Assembly: GCA_023511625.1 (NCBI GenBank)
Contig: JAIMBD010000008.1
Span: 12,969-76,968, forward strand
DNA: 64,000 bases
Direction: 5' to 3'
Origin: Bacillota bacterium
GTDB taxonomy: Bacteria > Bacillota > Sulfobacillia > Sulfobacillales > Sulfobacillaceae
How positions within the stretch are numbered: position 1 is the stretch's first letter; each line of letters starts with the position of its first letter. Both the position numbers and the translations under genes were made by a program. Below the pieces are notes generated by a model. It did no database searches. It was not told the DNA's origin and saw only the letters and a program-made list of their open reading frames with translations. Positions 4,920 through 37,031 of the stretch are shown one piece after another.

Positions 4920-5317
4920 ATGGCTCGGCAATGCCGTTCAAACCGCCAGGTGGTGTACTCCTGCCCCGATCACGGGGTTTGGTGCCCGACGTCTCGGCGG
5001 CGGGTGCTGGGGGAAGGCGTCGACACGCGGCGAAAGACCCTCCTTTGCGAGGTGGCCGCCGAACGGCAGGCGGAGATCCTCGAGATGGCCGTGATGCCCG
5101 ATCCTGTGCATCGCTGGATCTCGGTCGATCCGCAATTCGGCTCCCCCGCTTGGTTCGGCGGATGAAGGGCCGGTCGTCCCGCCTATTGCGACAGGAATTC
5201 CCTGGGCTGCGGAGTCGTCTACCCACTCTGTGGGCCAATCGCTACGTCGTCGCCACCGTGGGAGGTGCGCCGCTTGCCGTTATCAAGCAGTACCTCGAGA
5301 ACCAGCAGCGGGTATGA
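4920..5317 (+). pseudogene. tnpA: IS200/IS605 Y1 transposase TnpA, frameshifted and with a degraded HUH motif
   Basis: The 4920 frame gives ...VWCPTSRRRVL...EILEMAVMPDPVHRWISVDPQF. The 4931 frame continues LVRRMKGRSSRLLRQEFPGLRSRLPTLWANRYVVATVGGAPLAVIKQYLENQ. The frames switch at a C5 run (5143-5147). The expected PDHVHLL reads PDPVHRW. Confidence 0.75.
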
Positions 5318-6461
5318 GGTCCGGCGGTTGCACTTGGACCCTACTCCGCAAATGGAGGCCCTGGCCCGTGCGGCGGGCGATTTGTATACCCGCACGGTGG
5401 TCAGCTTTTGGCGCACGGTGCGCAAGCAGGCAGTATGGCTCAAACCCTCGTCGATGATGCGCTGGCACACGTCCGGCCAGCTTCACGCCCATAGCGCGGA
5501 TGCGGTGGTCCAAAGCTTTTATGCGGCCCTGAAATCCTGGCGGAAGCGTCGGAAGATGGATCCGCACGCCAAGCCGCCCCACCATCGCCGCCGATACTAT
5601 CGGGTGCAGTGGAAGTCCTCTGCGATTCGAGTACAGAATGGTTGCCTCGTGCTGTCCAATGGACGGGGCAATGCGCCGCTCATCGTCCCGTGGTCCTGGG
5701 ACCGGCCGGTGCTCGTCGAACTCGGGTGGACGGGAGCGACGTATGAACTCCGGTGCGTCTACCAGCGGGAGGATTCGGTGTCTCCACCGCTCGGCGATGG
5801 CGTAGCCGGCGTCGATCTAGGCGAAGTGCATCTCGCGGTGGTCCACGACGGTCAACACACCACGATCTTCAATGGCCACGCCTTGCGGGCCAAGCGCCAG
5901 TACCAGAACAAGATCCAAGCAACCCTTGCCGCGAAGCAGTCCCGCCTGAAGAAGGGCTCTCGCCGTTGGCGCAAGCTCCAACGGAGCAAACGGAAGCAAC
6001 TCCGGCAACTCGACCACCAGATCCGCGACCTCCTGCACAAGCAAACCACCGCTCTCGTCTCCACCCTCCACGCAAGCCGGGTGCAGACGGTGGTCATCGG
6101 GGATGTGCGGGATCTGCGACAACGGGTGGACTATGGCTCCGCCGCCAACCAGCGGATCCACCAGATGGTCACAGGCCGCGTGCGGTGGCTCATCACCTAC
6201 AAGGCGGAGCGCCGCGGCATGCGGGGGGTACTCCAGGATGAGGCGTACACCTCCCAGGAGTGCCCGCGTTGTCTGCACCGCCACAAGCCGCAGGGGCGGG
6301 ACTACCGTTGCCCGGCCTGTGGATTTTGTTTCCACCGCGATGGGGTCGGGGCGATCAACATCCGGCGCAAGTATCTGGGTCTCGGCCCAGTAGTTGGGGT
6401 CATGGCGTCCCCCACAGGCGTGCGGTGGCATCCCCATCAGCGCGCCCGCGTAGCTCGCTAA
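5265..6461 (+). CDS. tnpB: TnpB (IS605 OrfB family, RuvC-like RNA-guided nuclease)
   Basis: 398-aa ORF with GVDLGEVHLAVV (RuvC-I), the zinc ribbon CPRCLHRH...YRCPACGFCFHRDGVGAINI, and lysine/arginine-rich helices. The true start is probably near 5310-5330, just after the tnpA stop. Confidence 0.85.
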   Translation: MRRLPLSSSTSRTSSGYEVRRLHLDPTPQMEALARAAGDLYTRTVVSFWRTVRKQAVWLKPSSMMRWHTSGQLHAHSADAVVQSFYAALKSWRKRRKMDPHAKPPHHRRRYYRVQWKSSAIRVQNGCLVLSNGRGNAPLIVPWSWDRPVLVELGWTGATYELRCVYQREDSVSPPLGDGVAGVDLGEVHLAVVHDGQHTTIFNGHALRAKRQYQNKIQATLAAKQSRLKKGSRRWRKLQRSKRKQLRQLDHQIRDLLHKQTTALVSTLHASRVQTVVIGDVRDLRQRVDYGSAANQRIHQMVTGRVRWLITYKAERRGMRGVLQDEAYTSQECPRCLHRHKPQGRDYRCPACGFCFHRDGVGAINIRRKYLGLGPVVGVMASPTGVRWHPHQRARVAR

Positions 6462-31976: not shown

Positions 31977-33563
31977 AAAAGGCGGGGGAGTGAGAAATGC
32001 GAGCAGGCGGCGCGGTTCGGGGCGTCTTCACGAGGCCGTCTGCTCATGGCCGTGGAGGGCGGCAGCACTTGACGCCACGGGCTGCGCAATGCTGCCCTCG
32101 AGCGCGCAGAGTTTGTCCGCAGCGTTGGGGGAAACGGCCTTTCGTAGGAGCGAACGGTCCGGATGTAACCCTTGGCATCAGGGCGGACCTTCACGAAGGT
32201 ACGCCCGATTGCACTGGACACCGAGGCATCCATCGTCCCAGCGGGTGAAGCTAAATCCCATCTTGAAAGGGACGGGCATCGCGTTGGTGCGCGATGATGC
32301 CCTCCAGGTTCTCCGGGCTGCGGACCTGTCCCTGCTCGGGGACACAGTTTATTCCGCGCTGCGTACGCACCGCATGGTTCGACGCAACCGGCGCTATTGG
32401 AAACACCGTACCGTCCGACCTGCTTCCTCAACCGGCACCTGGGGCTGTGCGCCGTCTGCGGCCATCGTCCATGCCGGGCGCATGTCGGCCAACGGCCGAC
32501 CACGTCGGTTTCCCCTCGCCAGTTGGCCCCTCCTTGAGGAGCCGCGTAGAACAGCCATCGACTGGCAGAGCGACGGCGAATCCGGGGTCAAAACACTCTG
32601 GAAGGGCCGATCGGCGGTGAGAAGACGCGCAACGTCCCGGATACGCCGCCGTGTCGGTCGCGGGGCTGGACCATCCTGCGAAGTTTGAGCGGTGCGGTGG
32701 TTGCGACGGTTTTTGGCCCTGGCGCCGCGCCAGCCGGACCCCGGATAACAGCTCCCGAAGCGGGCACGGGGGGCCTGGATGGTAGTCCGGAATGGGGACG
32801 AGGTACCAGCGAACCTGCATGGGATTCAGCTTCAGAGGGCTGGTGTTAGCGGCGGCTGCTGGCGCCGCCTGGCGTTATCACACGGTTCAGCAAGCCTCGC
32901 AGGTGGTACGCCAAGCAACCGCCGTCGGGCATTATCACCAGGCCGCCGACGAGCTGACGGCGATCCAGCGACAAGGGTGGCCTCCTTGGACATATTTGGA
33001 AAACTCAGAACAATTACAGGTCCAGACCCTTCTGCAATCTGAAGCGGCGTTTCAATAAGGGGAAACGGCATTCCCGAGCGGGAATTATCAGCAGGCGTTG
33101 AAATGGTGGGCAAAATTCTCCTCTTAGGATGTTCACTATCGCACCGCTCAACAGCAGAGCCGCACCGTTTCGCAGGTATTAATGAGGGGACTGAGCCCGA
33201 GGGGACTATAGCTGCCCGGCGGAGGAAAGGGAGGCTGCCTGCAGCGTTTCGTGGCGACTTGCCACAAAACCACATGCGGGGCAATGCCTTTGGCCATTGC
33301 CCCGCCACCGTCGATCGCATTGCGGCCCCAGGCGCCCGACCGACGGCTCCGCTCCCGGATTGTATTGAGGCCCGCCCTCGCACCGGCGGCTTAGGGGCAT
33401 CGCTGGCGGGCAGCGCCCCGAGCACCGACTAGGTTCAATATAGCGTGACACCAATGCTCAAATGCTCAGGGGTTTCTTTGCCTCCGCATGAGCTTTTTAG
33501 GTGTCTACGATGTCTCCCCTGGCCAAACGACCAGCAGAGGCCCGCGAAAGGAACGGGCCGACG

Positions 33564-33597
33564 CCCGGCGAATTTCGTGCAGAGTCTGCACGAAAAT
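33564..33597. repeat. Copy A of a ~34-nt direct repeat flanking the parA-parG-hicBA module
   Basis: cccggcgaatttcgtgcagagtctgcacgaaaat matches 35302-35335 at about 26 of 34 positions. The shared core is GAATTTCGTkCAGAGTCTG. Confidence 0.6.
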
Positions 33598-33609
33598 CCC
33601 TGTGTCCGC

Positions 33610-33855
33610 CTAGCGCTCCTCGTAGGCCCGCAGAAAGGCGTCGCGCGGAATCCCCGCCTGGCGGAGCACGGTTTGCAACGTGGAGGCCTTCAGCGTGCGG
33701 TGGTTGGGCAGCGTCATCGGCGTCCGGGTGCCGTCGGGGTTGGTGCGCACCAGCGCGATGTGGTTGCCGCGGCGCACCTCCGTAAAGCCGAGCCGGGCCA
33801 GCGCCGCCAACACCCGCGGCAGCGGGGCGTCGCGCGGAAGCCGCCCGTCAGACAT
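33610..33855 (-). CDS. hicA: HicA-family mRNA interferase toxin
   Basis: MSDGRLPRDAPLPRVLAALARLGFTEVRRGNHIALVRTNPDGTRTPMTLPNHRTLKASTLQTVLRQAGIPRDAFLRAY. Confidence 0.75.
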   Translation of the reverse strand: MSDGRLPRDAPLPRVLAALARLGFTEVRRGNHIALVRTNPDGTRTPMTLPNHRTLKASTLQTVLRQAGIPRDAFLRAYEER

Positions 33856-34075
33856 GGGCCTCCCGAATCTCGACGGCCAGCACCGGCTCGTCGTCCCAGG
33901 CCTCCGGACCGAAGGTTGCGAGATGAAATCGCACCGCGCTTTCAACGTCGGCCAAGGCTGCCTCCGCTGTGTCGCCTTCCCCGACGACGACCCCGCGCAA
34001 GCCGACCGGATAGGCCACATAGCCGTCCGGATGGCGCTCGAGAATGATGGGAATCCGGCGGTCCACCGCCCTCAC
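33848..34075 (-). CDS. hicB: HicB-like antitoxin
   Basis: GTG 34075 follows AGGAGG. IPIILERHPDGYVAYPVGLRGVVVGEGDTAEAALADVESAVRFHL. It overlaps the hicA start by 8 nt and the parG-like stop as GTGA. Confidence 0.65.
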   Translation of the reverse strand: MRAVDRRIPIILERHPDGYVAYPVGLRGVVVGEGDTAEAALADVESAVRFHLATFGPEAWDDEPVLAVEIREAHV

Positions 34076-34446
34076 CTCCTGGCTTCCTGGCTTCCTGGCT
34101 TGCTGGATTCCTGGAAATACCGGATGGCCCGCACCACGTAGTCCCGCATGCTGATGCCCTCGGCCGCGCACTGTACCTTCAGGGTGCGCGCAAAGTCGGC
34201 GTCGAATTCGAACGTCACCTTCTTGGTGGCTTTGGCCGACTTAGCATTGCGGGGTTCCTGGGAGGCTGGCATCCCGGATTCCTGGCTTGCTGGATTCCTG
34301 GATTCCTGGATTACGGGAAAGATGGTCAGCTGGTTTTCCGGCAACCCGGATCGCTGGGTTTCCGGAAAGCCAGGGTCGGGCGCCGGCTGATTGAGTTGGT
34401 CCAGCAGGCCGCCCAGACTACTCGTGGACCGGCGAGGGGAAGCCAT
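34072..34446 (-). CDS. Ribbon-helix-helix ParG/omega-like centromere-binding protein candidate
   Basis: The C-terminus KKVTFEFDADFARTLKVQCAAEGISMRDYVVRAIRYF is an RHH pattern. It lies directly downstream of parA. ATG 34446 has a GAGGAGG SD. An alternative short form starts at ATG 34272. Confidence 0.6.
   Translation of the reverse strand: MASPRRSTSSLGGLLDQLNQPAPDPGFPETQRSGLPENQLTIFPVIQESRNPASQESGMPASQEPRNAKSAKATKKVTFEFDADFARTLKVQCAAEGISMRDYVVRAIRYFQESSKPGSQEARR
34075..34114. repeat. 8-bp tandem iterons, array 1 (5 units: cctcctgg cttcctgg cttcctgg cttgctgg attcctgg)
   Basis: Read directly from the sequence. It overlaps the last codons of the parG-like gene and the SD/start of hicB. Confidence 0.8.
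34254..34365. repeat. 8-bp tandem iterons, array 2 (about 14 units ending CYGG)
   Basis: gttcctgg gaggctgg catcccgg attcctgg cttgctgg attcctgg attcctgg attacggg aaagatgg tcagctgg ttttccgg caacccgg atcgctgg gtttccgg. The 8-nt phase is strict. Confidence 0.8.
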
Positions 34447-35186
34447 CGCCCAACACCTCCTCAAAGAGCTGCACATACGCGTGGACCGTCGGATTGTGGG
34501 GGTCGGTCCAGACCGCCGGCTGCCGGTGATAGGTCGGGGCCGCGGCAAACCGGATAGTGCGCGGGATCACGGTCTCGAACACCCAGACGCCGCGGGGGGC
34601 ATAGTAGTGCCGGATCTCCTGGAGAACCTCGGTGCCCAGCGTCGTGCGGGCGTCGAACATCGTCACCAGGATGCCTAAGAGGGTCAGGCGCGGGTTTTCG
34701 CGGGCCCGCACATTCTAGCGCGAAGTGCTCGGCCTGCACCGGCACCAGCACGGCGTCGGCCGCAGCCAAGGCGTTGCCCGTCATCAGCCCCAGCGACGGC
34801 GGGGTGTCGATGAAGACCAAGTCGTAAGGCGGGAAAGCGGCCAAGGCCTCCCGGAGCAGCCGGAAGGGGGCCGGATAGCGGTCGCGGTGGGTCAGCACCT
34901 CGAAGTCCACCAGAGCGAGGTCGTCATGCGCGGGCAACACGCCCAAGCCGTCCGCCAGCGGCACGCAGGCCTGCGCCGGCGCCGCGCCCCGGAACAGCAC
35001 GTCGGCCAACGTCAATTCCAGCGTGTCGACGTTGCCGCCAAAGGAGAGGTACGCGTTGCCCTGGTGGTCCGCATCCACCAGAAGCGTGCGCCACCCGCTT
35101 CGGGCGGCCACCGCCGCCAACGACACGGCGGTCACGGTCTTGCCCACGCCACCTTTGTTCATCGCCACCGCAATGACGTGTCCCAT
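34418..35186 (-). pseudogene. parA: ParA/Soj-type partition ATPase, disrupted (frame change near 34711-34716)
   Basis: The 35186 frame gives MGHVIAVAMNKGGVGKTVTAVSLAA...LLVDADHQGN...DLVFIDTPPSLG...VPVQAEHFALE and then nonsense. The 34711 frame gives VRARENPRLTLLGILVTMFDARTTLGTEVLQEI...VFETVIPRTIRFAAAP. Confidence 0.75.
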
Positions 35187-35301
35187 GTCCTCACCCGCTA
35201 GCCAGCTTGCTGTATTCCCGAGTTTACAGGAACCCGGGCGGCGGCGCTAGCGGAGCGGGATGGCGCTCAAGAACGTTCGGACGTCCTTCGCCCGTGAGGA
35301 A

Positions 35302-35335
35302 GCCGGGGAATTTCGTTCAGAGTCTGACCGCAATT
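35302..35335. repeat. Copy B of the ~34-nt direct repeat (see 33564-33597)
   Basis: gccggggaatttcgttcagagtctgaccgcaatt, about 115 nt upstream of the parA start. Confidence 0.6.
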
Positions 35336-35879
35336 CGTCCCGCGATGACGGGCCGCCTCCACTACACACGCATAGAGCCTCTCTGCGCGGCCTTGGGAGG
35401 AGAGGGCGGGTCTTCCTCGTCTCGCCTGCTAAACGCCCGTCTACGGGCCTCTAAACGCGTCTTCACGGCAGGGACGGCACGCTGCAGATGTCGGTGCGGC
35501 AGGGATGGACACGGCTTCCAGGCGAGCCTATACTGGACGCGAGCACTGACGCGGAGCACAAAAAAAGAGCGCTGCAGGCACCCCCGCCCAGGGTTCCCGT
35601 CCGGCACTCCCGCGCGAGGCCGGAACGCTTCGCCGCCTAGGGGTAGGGTAGCAGACCCAGCGGGCGAAGCACAAGCCTCTTCGGAGGCGTTCCATAGCGT
35701 GAACGTAGCCTGACGCGGGATCCAAGGTCGTCAGGCCTTTTTGTTGCCGGCTGTTGCGGTTGGAAGGCGGCGTAAACAGCAGCAGAACAGCGCTCGTGGT
35801 TGCCGCCCCCGCGCTGCTCCCTGCCCGCCGTATTCACGGGAAGAGCCCCCTCGGTTGTCCAGAAGCAAGGAGGTCTCTT

Positions 35880-36600
35880 GTGGGAGTCAGTATAGCCAAC
35901 CCGCCCCGGTTCCTGCAAGCGCCGGACGAACACGCCCGCCTGCTGCACCCGGCCGGCCCCGGTCTGGTGGTGCTGGCGCGCCGCGACGGGCGCTGGCAGG
36001 AGCAGCGGATTCCCGTCGAGGCGTTGCCAGAGCGCGTCCGCCCTCTGGCTGGCTGCCCCGAGGTCTTCCTAACGCAGAACCGCTTCCGCGGTCCCCGGCG
36101 CATCGCTCATCTGGTGGGCCTCGATGCCCTGTGGGCCGACCTGAACTACCACCGACTGCCCCAGTGGGTCGGCTGGCGGCCCGAAGGCATCTGGGAGCTG
36201 GCAATCGCCCACCTGGAGGCCGCGCGGATCCCCGCGCCGACGCTTGCCATCGCCACGGGGCGCGGCTTGTGCCTGCTGTGGGTGCACTCCTCGGTTCCCC
36301 GCCAAGCCTTGCCGCGCTAGAACGCGTGCCAGCACCGGCTGTACACCGCCCTGAAACCCTTAGGCGCCGACCGGATGGCCCTAGACCTCGACTGCGTACT
36401 GCGGCTCATTGGCACCGTGCACCGCGAGGCCGGCCAAGTGGTATGGGCCTTGACCCCGGTGGGCCGGGTGTGGACCTTCGATGCGCTGGCGGATGAAATT
36501 CTCCCGCTGACGCGCCGGGACTCGGAGGCGACTCATGCCGCCACAATGCCCCGGAGAGAGGCGAGAAGGCCCCTAGAACGCGAGAAAGGGGAGAGGGGTA
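35880..36600 (+). pseudogene. Plasmid/phage-type replication-initiator (or primase-like) gene with an in-frame amber codon
   Basis: AAGGAGG SD plus GTG 35880. Sequence reads VFLTQNRFRGPRRIAHLVGLDALWADLNYH...IPAPTLAIATGRGLCLLWV...QALPR, then TAG (36318-36320), then NACQHRLYTALKPLGADRMALDLDCVLRLIGTVHREAG in the same frame. Confidence 0.5.
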
Positions 36601-36639
36601 TGCCCCCCCCCGTCGCGGTCCAGGCTGGCGCGCAGCGAA

Positions 36640-37031
36640 ATGCTGGCGTTTTTGACCGAGCTCTTTCCCTGGCTTCTGGAGCGAAAGCGGCAGTGAGCGG
36701 GCACACTCAGCGGCGGACAACAGCAGATGCTGGCGGAAGCGCGTTGACGCTGCGCCCGAGGCTTCTGATTTTGGACGAACCATCGCTTGGCCTCGCGCCG
36801 CGCGTGGTCGCGGAGGTGTTCGGGGCGCTGCGAACGATTCGCGAGCGCAGGGGCCTAGCCATTCTGCTGGTAGAACAAAATGCGGCGCAGGCCTTAGGCA
36901 TAGTGGACGAGGTGGTACTGCTGGAAAACGGGAGGCCGGTATTCGTGGGGAGACAAGACGATCCCGCGATCGCGCGGTTCATCCAGCGGGCGTATCTCGG
37001 AGGAGCCGGGACTGGGGCCAACACACGGTAA
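36640..37031 (+). pseudogene. LivF-like branched-chain amino-acid ABC transporter ATPase, 3' remnant with a stop and a frameshift
   Basis: MLAFLTELFPWLLERKRQ, then TGA (36694-36696), then AGTLSGGQQQMLAEAR, then a shift near 36740-36747, then ALTLRPRLLILDEPSLGLAPRVV...LLVEQNAAQAL...AYLGG. The Walker A half is absent. Confidence 0.7.

Follow-up and report, generated by a model that had tools for sequence, protein, structure and literature searches.

Phased 8-bp arrays inside a predicted ribbon-helix-helix gene, likely binding sites of the encoded protein in a ParA-HicBA module

The centromeres of type Ib plasmid partition systems are described as non-coding repeat arrays that precede or follow the par operon. 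Partition sites also occur within genes, e.g. the parS site of B. subtilis, which is located within spo0J. In pMF1, ParB iterons lie inside open reading frames (ORFs) 14 and 16 (PMC3235114). In the ParF-ParG system of TP228, parH and OF contain 12 and 8 ACTC boxes, respectively, separated by 4-bp AT-rich spacers to give an 8-bp period; one ParG dimer binds each box, the protein coats the sites cooperatively with the help of the spacers, and ParF is recruited through the N-terminal tails (PMC3130281). The omega protein of pSM19035 binds contiguous 7-bp heptads, one dimer each, in a left-handed protein spiral, and its promoters double as parS; the unstructured N-terminus of omega contacts delta, and the antitoxin is not the regulator (PMC3074150). 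Here, we describe a locus of a Bacillota bacterium (Sulfobacillaceae; assembly GCA_023511625.1, contig JAIMBD010000008.1, positions 12,969 to 76,968; this 64,000-nucleotide stretch is hereafter the window) where two arrays of phased 8-bp units lie within the gene of a predicted ribbon-helix-helix (RHH) protein, between a parA pseudogene and putative hicBA toxin-antitoxin genes. The original prediction, made from the letters of the window, took these arrays for the centromere or operator of the parA-RHH pair and drew on a type Ib precedent of 4-bp boxes with 4-bp spacers, which the published TP228 sites bear out (PMC3130281).

The RHH gene and the two arrays it contains are laid out as follows:

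34072-34446, minus strand: RHH gene, long form, 124 amino acids, of the centromere-binding type; its ATG lies 29 nucleotides (nt) inside the end of parA, and the relatives P0002-P0008 align with it from residue 1.
34384-34446, minus strand: N-terminal peptide MASPRRSTSSLGGLLDQLNQP, the presumed ParA-contacting tail, kept in all family members (R-R/K...S-L-G-G-x-L-D).
34246-34373, minus strand: array 2, about 16 phased 8-bp units including one degenerate unit added at each side; encodes the disordered linker, residues ~25-67.
34102-34227, minus strand: predicted RHH DNA-binding domain KKVTFEFDADFARTLKVQCAAEGISMRDYVVRAIRYFQ, assigned from the AlphaFold2 topology, the hhalign match to ParG and the ratio of nonsynonymous to synonymous substitution rates (dN/dS).
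34075-34122, minus strand: array 1, five strict units and one degenerate unit; encodes the C-terminal tail QESSKPGSQEARR.

Both arrays are present as originally described. Read in steps of 8 nt on the plus strand, the five units claimed at 34075-34114 are CCTCCTGG CTTCCTGG CTTCCTGG CTTGCTGG ATTCCTGG, and all five end in CTGG. At 34254-34365, where about 14 phased units had been claimed, 12 of 14 end in C(C/T)GG with zero phase slips, the other two being ATTACGGG and AAAGATGG. On the minus strand, i.e. the strand of the gene, the unit of both arrays is a CCRG box followed by a NAAN spacer. Tandem Repeats Finder returns a period of 8 in both arrays and also the 24-nt period reported earlier for array 2, and repeat grouping places 13 in-register copies in one family. 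Across the whole assembly (2,585,636 bp in 40 contigs), runs of at least four phased NNNNCYGG / CCRGNNNN units are found solely here, where there are three (5, 7, and 5 units), compared with genome-wide expectations from base composition of ~0.01 runs of 5 and ~4e-6 runs of 7. The 8-bp arrays are real and far beyond chance. Their unit is a 4-bp box with an A-rich 4-bp spacer: tallied by position, 64 units taken from the linkers of four loci give C59, C54, R56, G54, N, A40, A41, N.

An alternative considered earlier was that the RHH gene starts at ATG 34272, which would leave array 2 mostly intergenic. This does not hold, as the 21 N-terminal residues before the array are kept in every homologue; because this peptide is conserved in all of them, the true start is placed at ATG 34446 and array 2 is translated. 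ATG 34446 is preceded at a distance of 9 nt by the Shine-Dalgarno sequence GAGGAGG, and the gene stops with TGA at 34074-34072. Relatives of the protein are few: a word search of 5.8 billion proteins returns 3, and a search of 1.84 billion representatives adds 5 more. All homologues have the N-terminal motif M-x-(S)RR-x-(T/S)SLGGxLDQ/R followed by a variable P/E/S/Q-rich middle, and the C-terminal domain KKVTFEFDADFARxLKVxCAAEGISMRDYVVRAI is strongly conserved in every one of them, with a dN/dS of 0.07-0.13 for the RHH domain.

The AlphaFold2 model of this protein, computed from a 9-sequence alignment, has a short helix at residues 11-18, disorder at 20-72, an extended segment at 75-82, and helices at 83-96 and 100-115. 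The predicted local distance difference test score (pLDDT) is ~50 in the linker, which has no secondary structure, and ~84 in the domain, for which the model predicts ribbon-helix-helix topology. The best single evidence for the RHH assignment is an hhalign match in register between the family profile and the ParG protein of Erwinia plasmid pJE01 (P0011; probability 75%, E 2.5e-5, 46 columns). Foldseek searches with the model also place RHH proteins among the top ranks (PutA, CdbA, NikA, AtaR, CopG, Arc, and ParD). Pfam and NCBIfam assign a family to none of the RHH partners searched, and the ParG profile PF09274 gives no match to the window protein at E<=0.1. On these sequence comparisons, the window protein appears ParG-like in design and a remote relative at best, rather than a member of the ParG family. 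Its N-terminal peptide is presumed to contact ParA, by analogy with ParG and omega.

Several lines of evidence point to the DNA, rather than the encoded peptide, as the level at which the arrays are maintained. The original prediction had named 8-bp periodicity in homologous loci as a test, and both arrays are kept in position and phase in L016, L017/L018, and L019. In these loci, 15-17 phased units fall in the linker-coding part and another 4-5 close the RHH gene at its 3' end, and their linker peptides diverge in sequence and length despite the kept arrays. In L001 and L003, which have an intact ParA and no hicBA, window-type units lie in non-coding DNA upstream of parA. These are of the ACAGGAAT/CCAGCAAT type, with ~16 units in L003 and fewer in L001 (P = 0.0035 for L001). 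The conserved place and phase, together with these non-coding arrays upstream of intact parA genes, lend comparative support to the proposal that the arrays are the centromere or operator of the parA-RHH pair, lying partly in coding sequence.

Shuffling synonymous codons separates the arrays from the peptide they encode. Array 2 of the window contains 12-13 phased boxes compared with 6.2-6.6 expected after shuffling (P ~0.001), and the RHH genes contain 10-13 compared with ~5.4-6.6 (P ~0.001-0.03). Overall, the excess of phased boxes over synonymous shuffles is found in 8 of 9 binding-protein genes (P < 0.0005 to 0.027), and is absent from the parA control genes. Differences between orthologous arrays are also unevenly placed, with 11 in box positions 1-4 vs 38 in spacer positions 5-8 (binomial P = 1.4e-4), or 10 vs 28 when independent pairs only are counted. 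By codon position these differences number 11/17/21; such a spread is not that of a protein-constrained pattern, which would concentrate differences at third positions. The constraint on the arrays acts on the DNA. Intragenic arrays always have CCAG on the sense strand, where tandem units translate as PGIQESRN or PESQKARK; an antisense reading would be rich in W, F, and L. The non-coding arrays, in contrast, show both orientations (L024, L162, and pJE01).

The array-in-RHH-gene layout is not peculiar to the window locus and recurs in other ParA-RHH families on plasmids. It is found in unrelated ParA-RHH pairs on complete plasmids of Staphylospora marina, Nostoc, Crinalium, and Microcystis. In PLSDB, the only match to the window protein is the ParA partner encoded on the 45-kb plasmid NZ_CP034119 of Staphylospora marina, a cultured thermophilic member of the Bacillota, at 34% identity. 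This RHH partner has 177 amino acids, including a 110-residue linker encoded by 37 consecutive phased units (L159 1376-1672) with 23 boxes compared with 9.9 expected (P < 0.0005), and ACAGCAAT units are found upstream of its parA. The Staphylospora marina plasmid is the best natural test system we found.

Scanning public contigs for four consecutive perfect CCAGNAAN units returns at least 120 metagenome stretches and 17 viral ones, most of which are perfect 8-mer microsatellites without a nearby RHH or ParA gene. The only true par locus among these matches is L024, a plasmid-like metagenome contig; L137 is a false positive, its genes being ChlL/ChlN. L024 encodes a 201-amino-acid ParA and a 98-amino-acid partner of the tail-linker-RHH design. 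Units of the CCAGAAAG type code for the linker of this partner, others precede parA in inverted orientation, and a 365-amino-acid Rep-like gene comes right after the RHH gene. The L024 RHH protein matches "hypothetical" genes beside ParA on 14 cyanobacterial plasmids. Three of these 14 were inspected, namely Nostoc pNe_4, Crinalium pCRI9333.02, and Microcystis p1FD4. Each carries units both upstream of parA and in the linker, and pNe_4 and p1FD4 have more of them where the RHH gene ends or beyond that point.

The low-GC genome GCA_902809865.1 (contig CADDWH010000002, L020) encodes P0009, a 207-amino-acid protein with helix-turn-helix, linker, and RHH parts, whose gene contains ~30 near-perfect CCAGAAAG/CCAGAATT/CTGGAATT units at 5243-5485. 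P0009 has a clear 8-residue repeat, and its "Cornifin" match reflects repeat composition. The P0009 gene is divergent from an operon of ParA and a small RHH protein, and the intergenic region of that operon has other palindromes, ACAAACGTTTACGT. Among more distant ParA relatives, L004 (Neobacillus) and L005 (Paenibacillus) keep the tail-linker-RHH partner design but have no 8-bp arrays, and L006 to L015 are not informative. Separately, the metagenome contigs L048 and L074 show five separate CCAGAAAA/CCAGAAAT arrays on both strands within ~1.5 kb. Profile searches of these two contigs give no RHH or ParA match, and their arrays look like iteron clusters of some replicon.

Given this comparative evidence, we consider it likely that the arrays are sites bound by the RHH protein whose own gene contains them. 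Under the model we propose, the 8-bp units would be iterons, i.e. tandem binding sites for the protein encoded by the gene that holds them. If the protein behaves like ParG and omega, every CCRG box would be recognized through the major groove by a single RHH dimer, adjacent dimers would be spaced 8 bp apart with a rotation of ~274 degrees per step, and cooperative binding would cover the arrays with protein. From this layer, the conserved basic N-terminal peptides would reach out to ParA. In this way, the arrays would constitute a type Ib centromere, with the sites at promoters or gene starts doubling as operators. Protein constraint would be weak in the linker-coding part, which holds array 2, and in the C-terminal tail, which holds array 1. 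One DNA stretch can serve both purposes because the sense translation of CCAG + AAAN is stop-free and polar. From these analogies we infer that the RHH protein binds each unit with one dimer and contacts ParA, and that the arrays act as both centromere and operator. The ancestral module would have been parA-RHH-hicB-hicA.

A broader proposal, for which we judge the case to fall a little short of even, is that a "centromere in linker" represents a general dual-coding design of type Ib cassettes across phyla (Bacillota and Cyanobacteriota). The array read by the adaptor would also be the DNA for its linker, such that expansion lengthens both, and CCAG + AAAN would have been chosen partly because it gives a stop-free polar peptide in all three phases. 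The adaptor gene alone, as a portable "site plus reader" unit, would then determine with which plasmids a cassette is incompatible and how specific its partition is.

Upstream of the RHH gene, the window shows the following features:

34418-35186, minus strand: parA pseudogene of the small Walker type and type Ib size (Pfam AAA_31 4e-35, CbiA 1.2e-12).
34716-34717, minus strand: point at which a 32-nt deletion puts parA out of frame, seen as one clean 32-column gap in the DNA alignment with L016 and L017.
35190-35237, minus strand: degenerate iteron or operator stretch directly 5' of the parA ATG, CCGGGTTC CTGTAAAC TCGGGAAT ACAGCAAG CTGGCTAG CGGGTGAG, resembling a 16-mer common to arrays 1 and 2.

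The window parA has no N-terminal DNA-binding extension, and its intact relative has 265 amino acids, which is the size and domain makeup of a type Ib ParA. Compared with this intact 265-amino-acid ParA of L001, the window copy aligns in two frames at 64% and 60% identity, with reference residues 160-170 absent. The C-terminal part of parA has a dN/dS of 0.08-0.13 between lineages, similar to that of the RHH domain, and the parA lesions are thus recent. Within this clade, parA was inactivated three times independently, i.e. by the 32-nt deletion, a frameshift, and a large truncation, and in the ParA of L017 GGVEKT replaces the Walker A motif GGVGKT. The RHH, hicB, and hicA genes stay intact downstream of the damaged parA genes. 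The ~55 nt before the parA ATG, which hold the degenerate units, are conserved between the window and L017/L018, and the sequence farther upstream is not. A generic lag-autocorrelation scan is too insensitive for the degenerate arrays. Since the window parA is a pseudogene, partition is probably no longer active at the locus. The arrays may persist in this genome as a recent relic or as an operator of the intact RHH-hicBA genes.

These toxin-antitoxin genes follow the RHH gene:

33848-34066, minus strand: hicB-like antitoxin gene, 72 amino acids, GTG start at 34066; predicted N-terminal HicB fold without a DNA-binding domain (AlphaFold2 and Foldseek).
33610-33855, minus strand: hicA toxin gene, 81 amino acids (Pfam HicA_toxin 2e-11); its start overlaps the end of hicB.

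The hicB-like protein has no Pfam or NCBIfam match, and its assignment comes from structure prediction. The AlphaFold2 model (pLDDT 75) has beta-beta-beta-alpha-beta topology, and the top Foldseek matches are HicB3 6u0i (probability 0.97, TMq 0.62, E 0.13), 6hpb, 6g26, and the HicB N-domain 6g1c. The HicB targets matched by Foldseek have 132-141 amino acids compared with 72 here, and the usual C-terminal DNA-binding domain is absent from the window protein. Among loci, HicB is 85-96% identical. Because HicB here is without a DNA-binding domain of its own, the RHH protein probably regulates the toxin-antitoxin genes; according to the models, it is the likely regulator of hicBA. As previously claimed, array 1 covers the last codons of the RHH gene and the hicB Shine-Dalgarno sequence: its last unit, CCAGGAGG, contains AGGAGG (34080-34075), 8 nt before GTG 34066. 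Array 1, ending in this Shine-Dalgarno sequence, is thereby a candidate operator or roadblock. The module also contains two terminator-like sites, about the level found in shuffled sequence.

We weighed four other explanations of the arrays. One, which we regard as rather unlikely, is that they are operators only, i.e. that the RHH protein regulates the RHH-hicBA operon, now or always, and compensates for a HicB without a DNA-binding domain while having no centromere role. It would fit the independent loss of parA in three lineages that keep RHH, hicB, hicA, and both arrays intact, a HicB made of the N-domain alone with array 1 abutting its gene start, and the example of pSM19035, where omega regulates epsilon-zeta in a matching gene order. 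However, the dN/dS of the parA C-terminal part (0.08-0.13) indicates that parA was functional through most of the divergence, and relatives with an intact ParA and no hicBA (L001, L003, Staphylospora, and the cyanobacterial plasmids) have the arrays. The conserved N-terminal peptide would also be without an obvious role in a plain repressor, and no promoter was detected near array 1. A second possibility, that selection for a repetitive PESQ-type linker peptide built by 24-nt duplications produced the periodicity as a side effect and that the units have no binding function, appears very unlikely. Although array 2 has a 24-nt period, P0009 shows its 8-residue repeat, and synonymous shuffles retain about half of the observed boxes, such that the peptide alone encodes many of them, an 8-nt sub-period within a 24-nt unit is meaningless at the protein level. 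Moreover, the array 8-mers are also found in non-coding DNA upstream of parA, substitutions track the 8-nt register and not the codon register, and the observed boxes are about twice the synonymous expectation.

The arrays could also be iterons for another protein, e.g. a replication initiator whose origin is embedded in the gene. Origins inside genes are known, e.g. in RepA_N plasmids, a Rep-like ORF (35754-36320) adjoins the module, and a Rep-like gene follows the RHH gene in L024. We nonetheless find this improbable, as the arrays accompany the RHH gene with or without a nearby rep (L017, L019, and L159-L162). Rep iterons are typically ~17-22 bp, whereas an 8-bp unit with a 4-bp box is of RHH size (8 bp for ParG and 7 bp for omega), and an Erwinia plasmid with a true ParG has a unit of the same box-and-spacer type upstream of parA-parG. 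The arrays might finally be slippage-prone contingency tracts, in which adding or losing a single unit would shift the RHH reading frame and so turn RHH and hicBA expression on or off; 8 is not a multiple of 3, some adjacent units are identical (CCAGGAAT twice and CCAGGAAG twice), and many metagenome matches to the scan pattern are perfect 8-mer microsatellites. Yet window units are mostly non-identical, all homologues are in frame, and the phase is held over 15-37 units, which makes this explanation extremely improbable in our view.

Some observations weigh against the arrays being RHH-bound centromere and operator sites. No sigma-70-type promoter was found anywhere in the module, and the operator role is the weakest part of the model because no promoter consensus is detectable there. 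The stretch upstream of the window parA is degenerate, with a box count that is not significant (P = 0.17), and the intragenic arrays of L001 and L003, which are short at 5-6 units and break phase, do not reach significance either. The scores of the RHH assignment are weak, with an E of 0.07 for Pfam RHH_10 and 0.69 for the PDB profile of ParG 1P94, the latter in the correct register, and Foldseek of the RHH model gives no significant match (best E 1.9). Lastly, parA is broken independently in L017/L018, by a frameshift at reference residues 124-128 (L017 about 1004-1015), and keeps only ~75 C-terminal residues in L019 (L019 5773-6002). With its parA genes broken, this clade cannot at present use the arrays for partition driven by ParA.

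The surroundings of the module are consistent with an origin outside the chromosome. The module is present as a single copy in the genome, between a DHDPS-family gene and a carboxylase gene and among gene fragments, and is a decaying chromosomal relic within an eroded, integrated, plasmid-like segment. The Rep-like ORF at 35754-36320 has no Pfam or NCBIfam match, and in the ORF that comes after it (36375-37031) the C-terminal half reads like a fragment of a LivF-type ABC ATPase. Because the Rep-like ORF precedes this LivF-like fragment, the arrangement suggests that plasmid-like DNA was inserted into, or replaced, a liv-type transporter locus. On the other side, a 1.4-kb stretch without clear genes extends from the DHDPS-family gene to the module, and it holds an ORF (31990-32688) with a weak match to RRXRR (PF14239, 2e-5, 25 bits) that is exactly at the Pfam cutoff. 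No tRNA genes or Rfam families are found within 28-40 kb. Two further elements bracket the parA-RHH-hicBA module:

33565-33598, no strand assigned: 34-nt direct repeat, downstream copy, a near-perfect palindrome GAATTTCGTGCAGAGTCTGCACGAAAATC.
35303-35336, no strand assigned: 34-nt direct repeat, upstream copy, 82% identical to the downstream copy.

These repeats are 1738 bp apart and are the only two copies in the genome; no copy is found in loci L001-L020, including the homologous L016-L019.

The interest of these findings rests on the recurring design and on the plasmids of cultured strains (Staphylospora marina SCSIO 07575, Nostoc, and Microcystis), the window copy being merely a decaying remnant. 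Here and in several unrelated ParA-RHH plasmid pairs, the longest array is inside the gene of its own reader. If the arrays are bound, they would be a clear natural case of dual selection, with a protein-binding array and a coding sequence in all three codon phases sharing the same DNA. Binding would also explain the odd linkers of P, E, S, Q, and K with a period of 8 residues, and why these proteins escape family annotation. Similarly, it would provide a simple annotation rule for the centromeres of many "hypothetical" ParA partners, and would make the incompatibility and specificity of a cassette predictable from a single gene.

Comparison with a true ParG system is provided by plasmid pJE01 of Erwinia sp. 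Ejp617 (NC_017442), which has a Pfam ParG match (3.9e-14) and 22 perfect tandem GGATTCTG (= CCAGAATC) units (L163 3050-3225). Like those of the window, the pJE01 units are of the box-and-spacer type. By contrast, the pJE01 array lies in non-coding DNA, in inverted orientation and 350-530 bp before parA, and the ParG of this plasmid has a short tail and no long linker. TAATCCC-type 8-bp units are also found beside the parA start of this plasmid. Related Erwinia plasmids presumably carry a variable 8-bp short-sequence repeat that serves for strain typing; if so, this repeat may be the ParG centromere.

Like TP228, the window module has a small Walker ParA (here a pseudogene), a predicted RHH protein with a presumed flexible N-terminal tail, and arrays of boxes and spacers. 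They differ in that the ACTC boxes of TP228 are all non-coding and upstream of parFG, whereas the window has CCRG boxes with the two main arrays inside the RHH gene; tandem ACTC and AT-rich units of the TP228 type would give stop codons if translated. With the delta-omega-epsilon-zeta genes of pSM19035, the module shares the order ParA, RHH protein, antitoxin, toxin. The units of pSM19035, on the other hand, are WATCACW heptads in promoter regions, epsilon/zeta are not HicBA, and no sequence similarity was detected. The sites in pMF1 and spo0J are single or few and lie in genes of folded proteins, in contrast to the long phased array of the window, which forms the linker of its own reader. In the literature searched, we find no description of a phased iteron array inside the gene or linker of a type Ib centromere-binding protein. 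By these analogies, the system would work like a type Ib ParA/RHH partition-operator system, with TP228 ParFG-parH as the nearest known case for the design of the sites and pSM19035 for the logic of the operon. It differs in the place of its main arrays, which lie in the gene of their own reader and encode its linker and tail.

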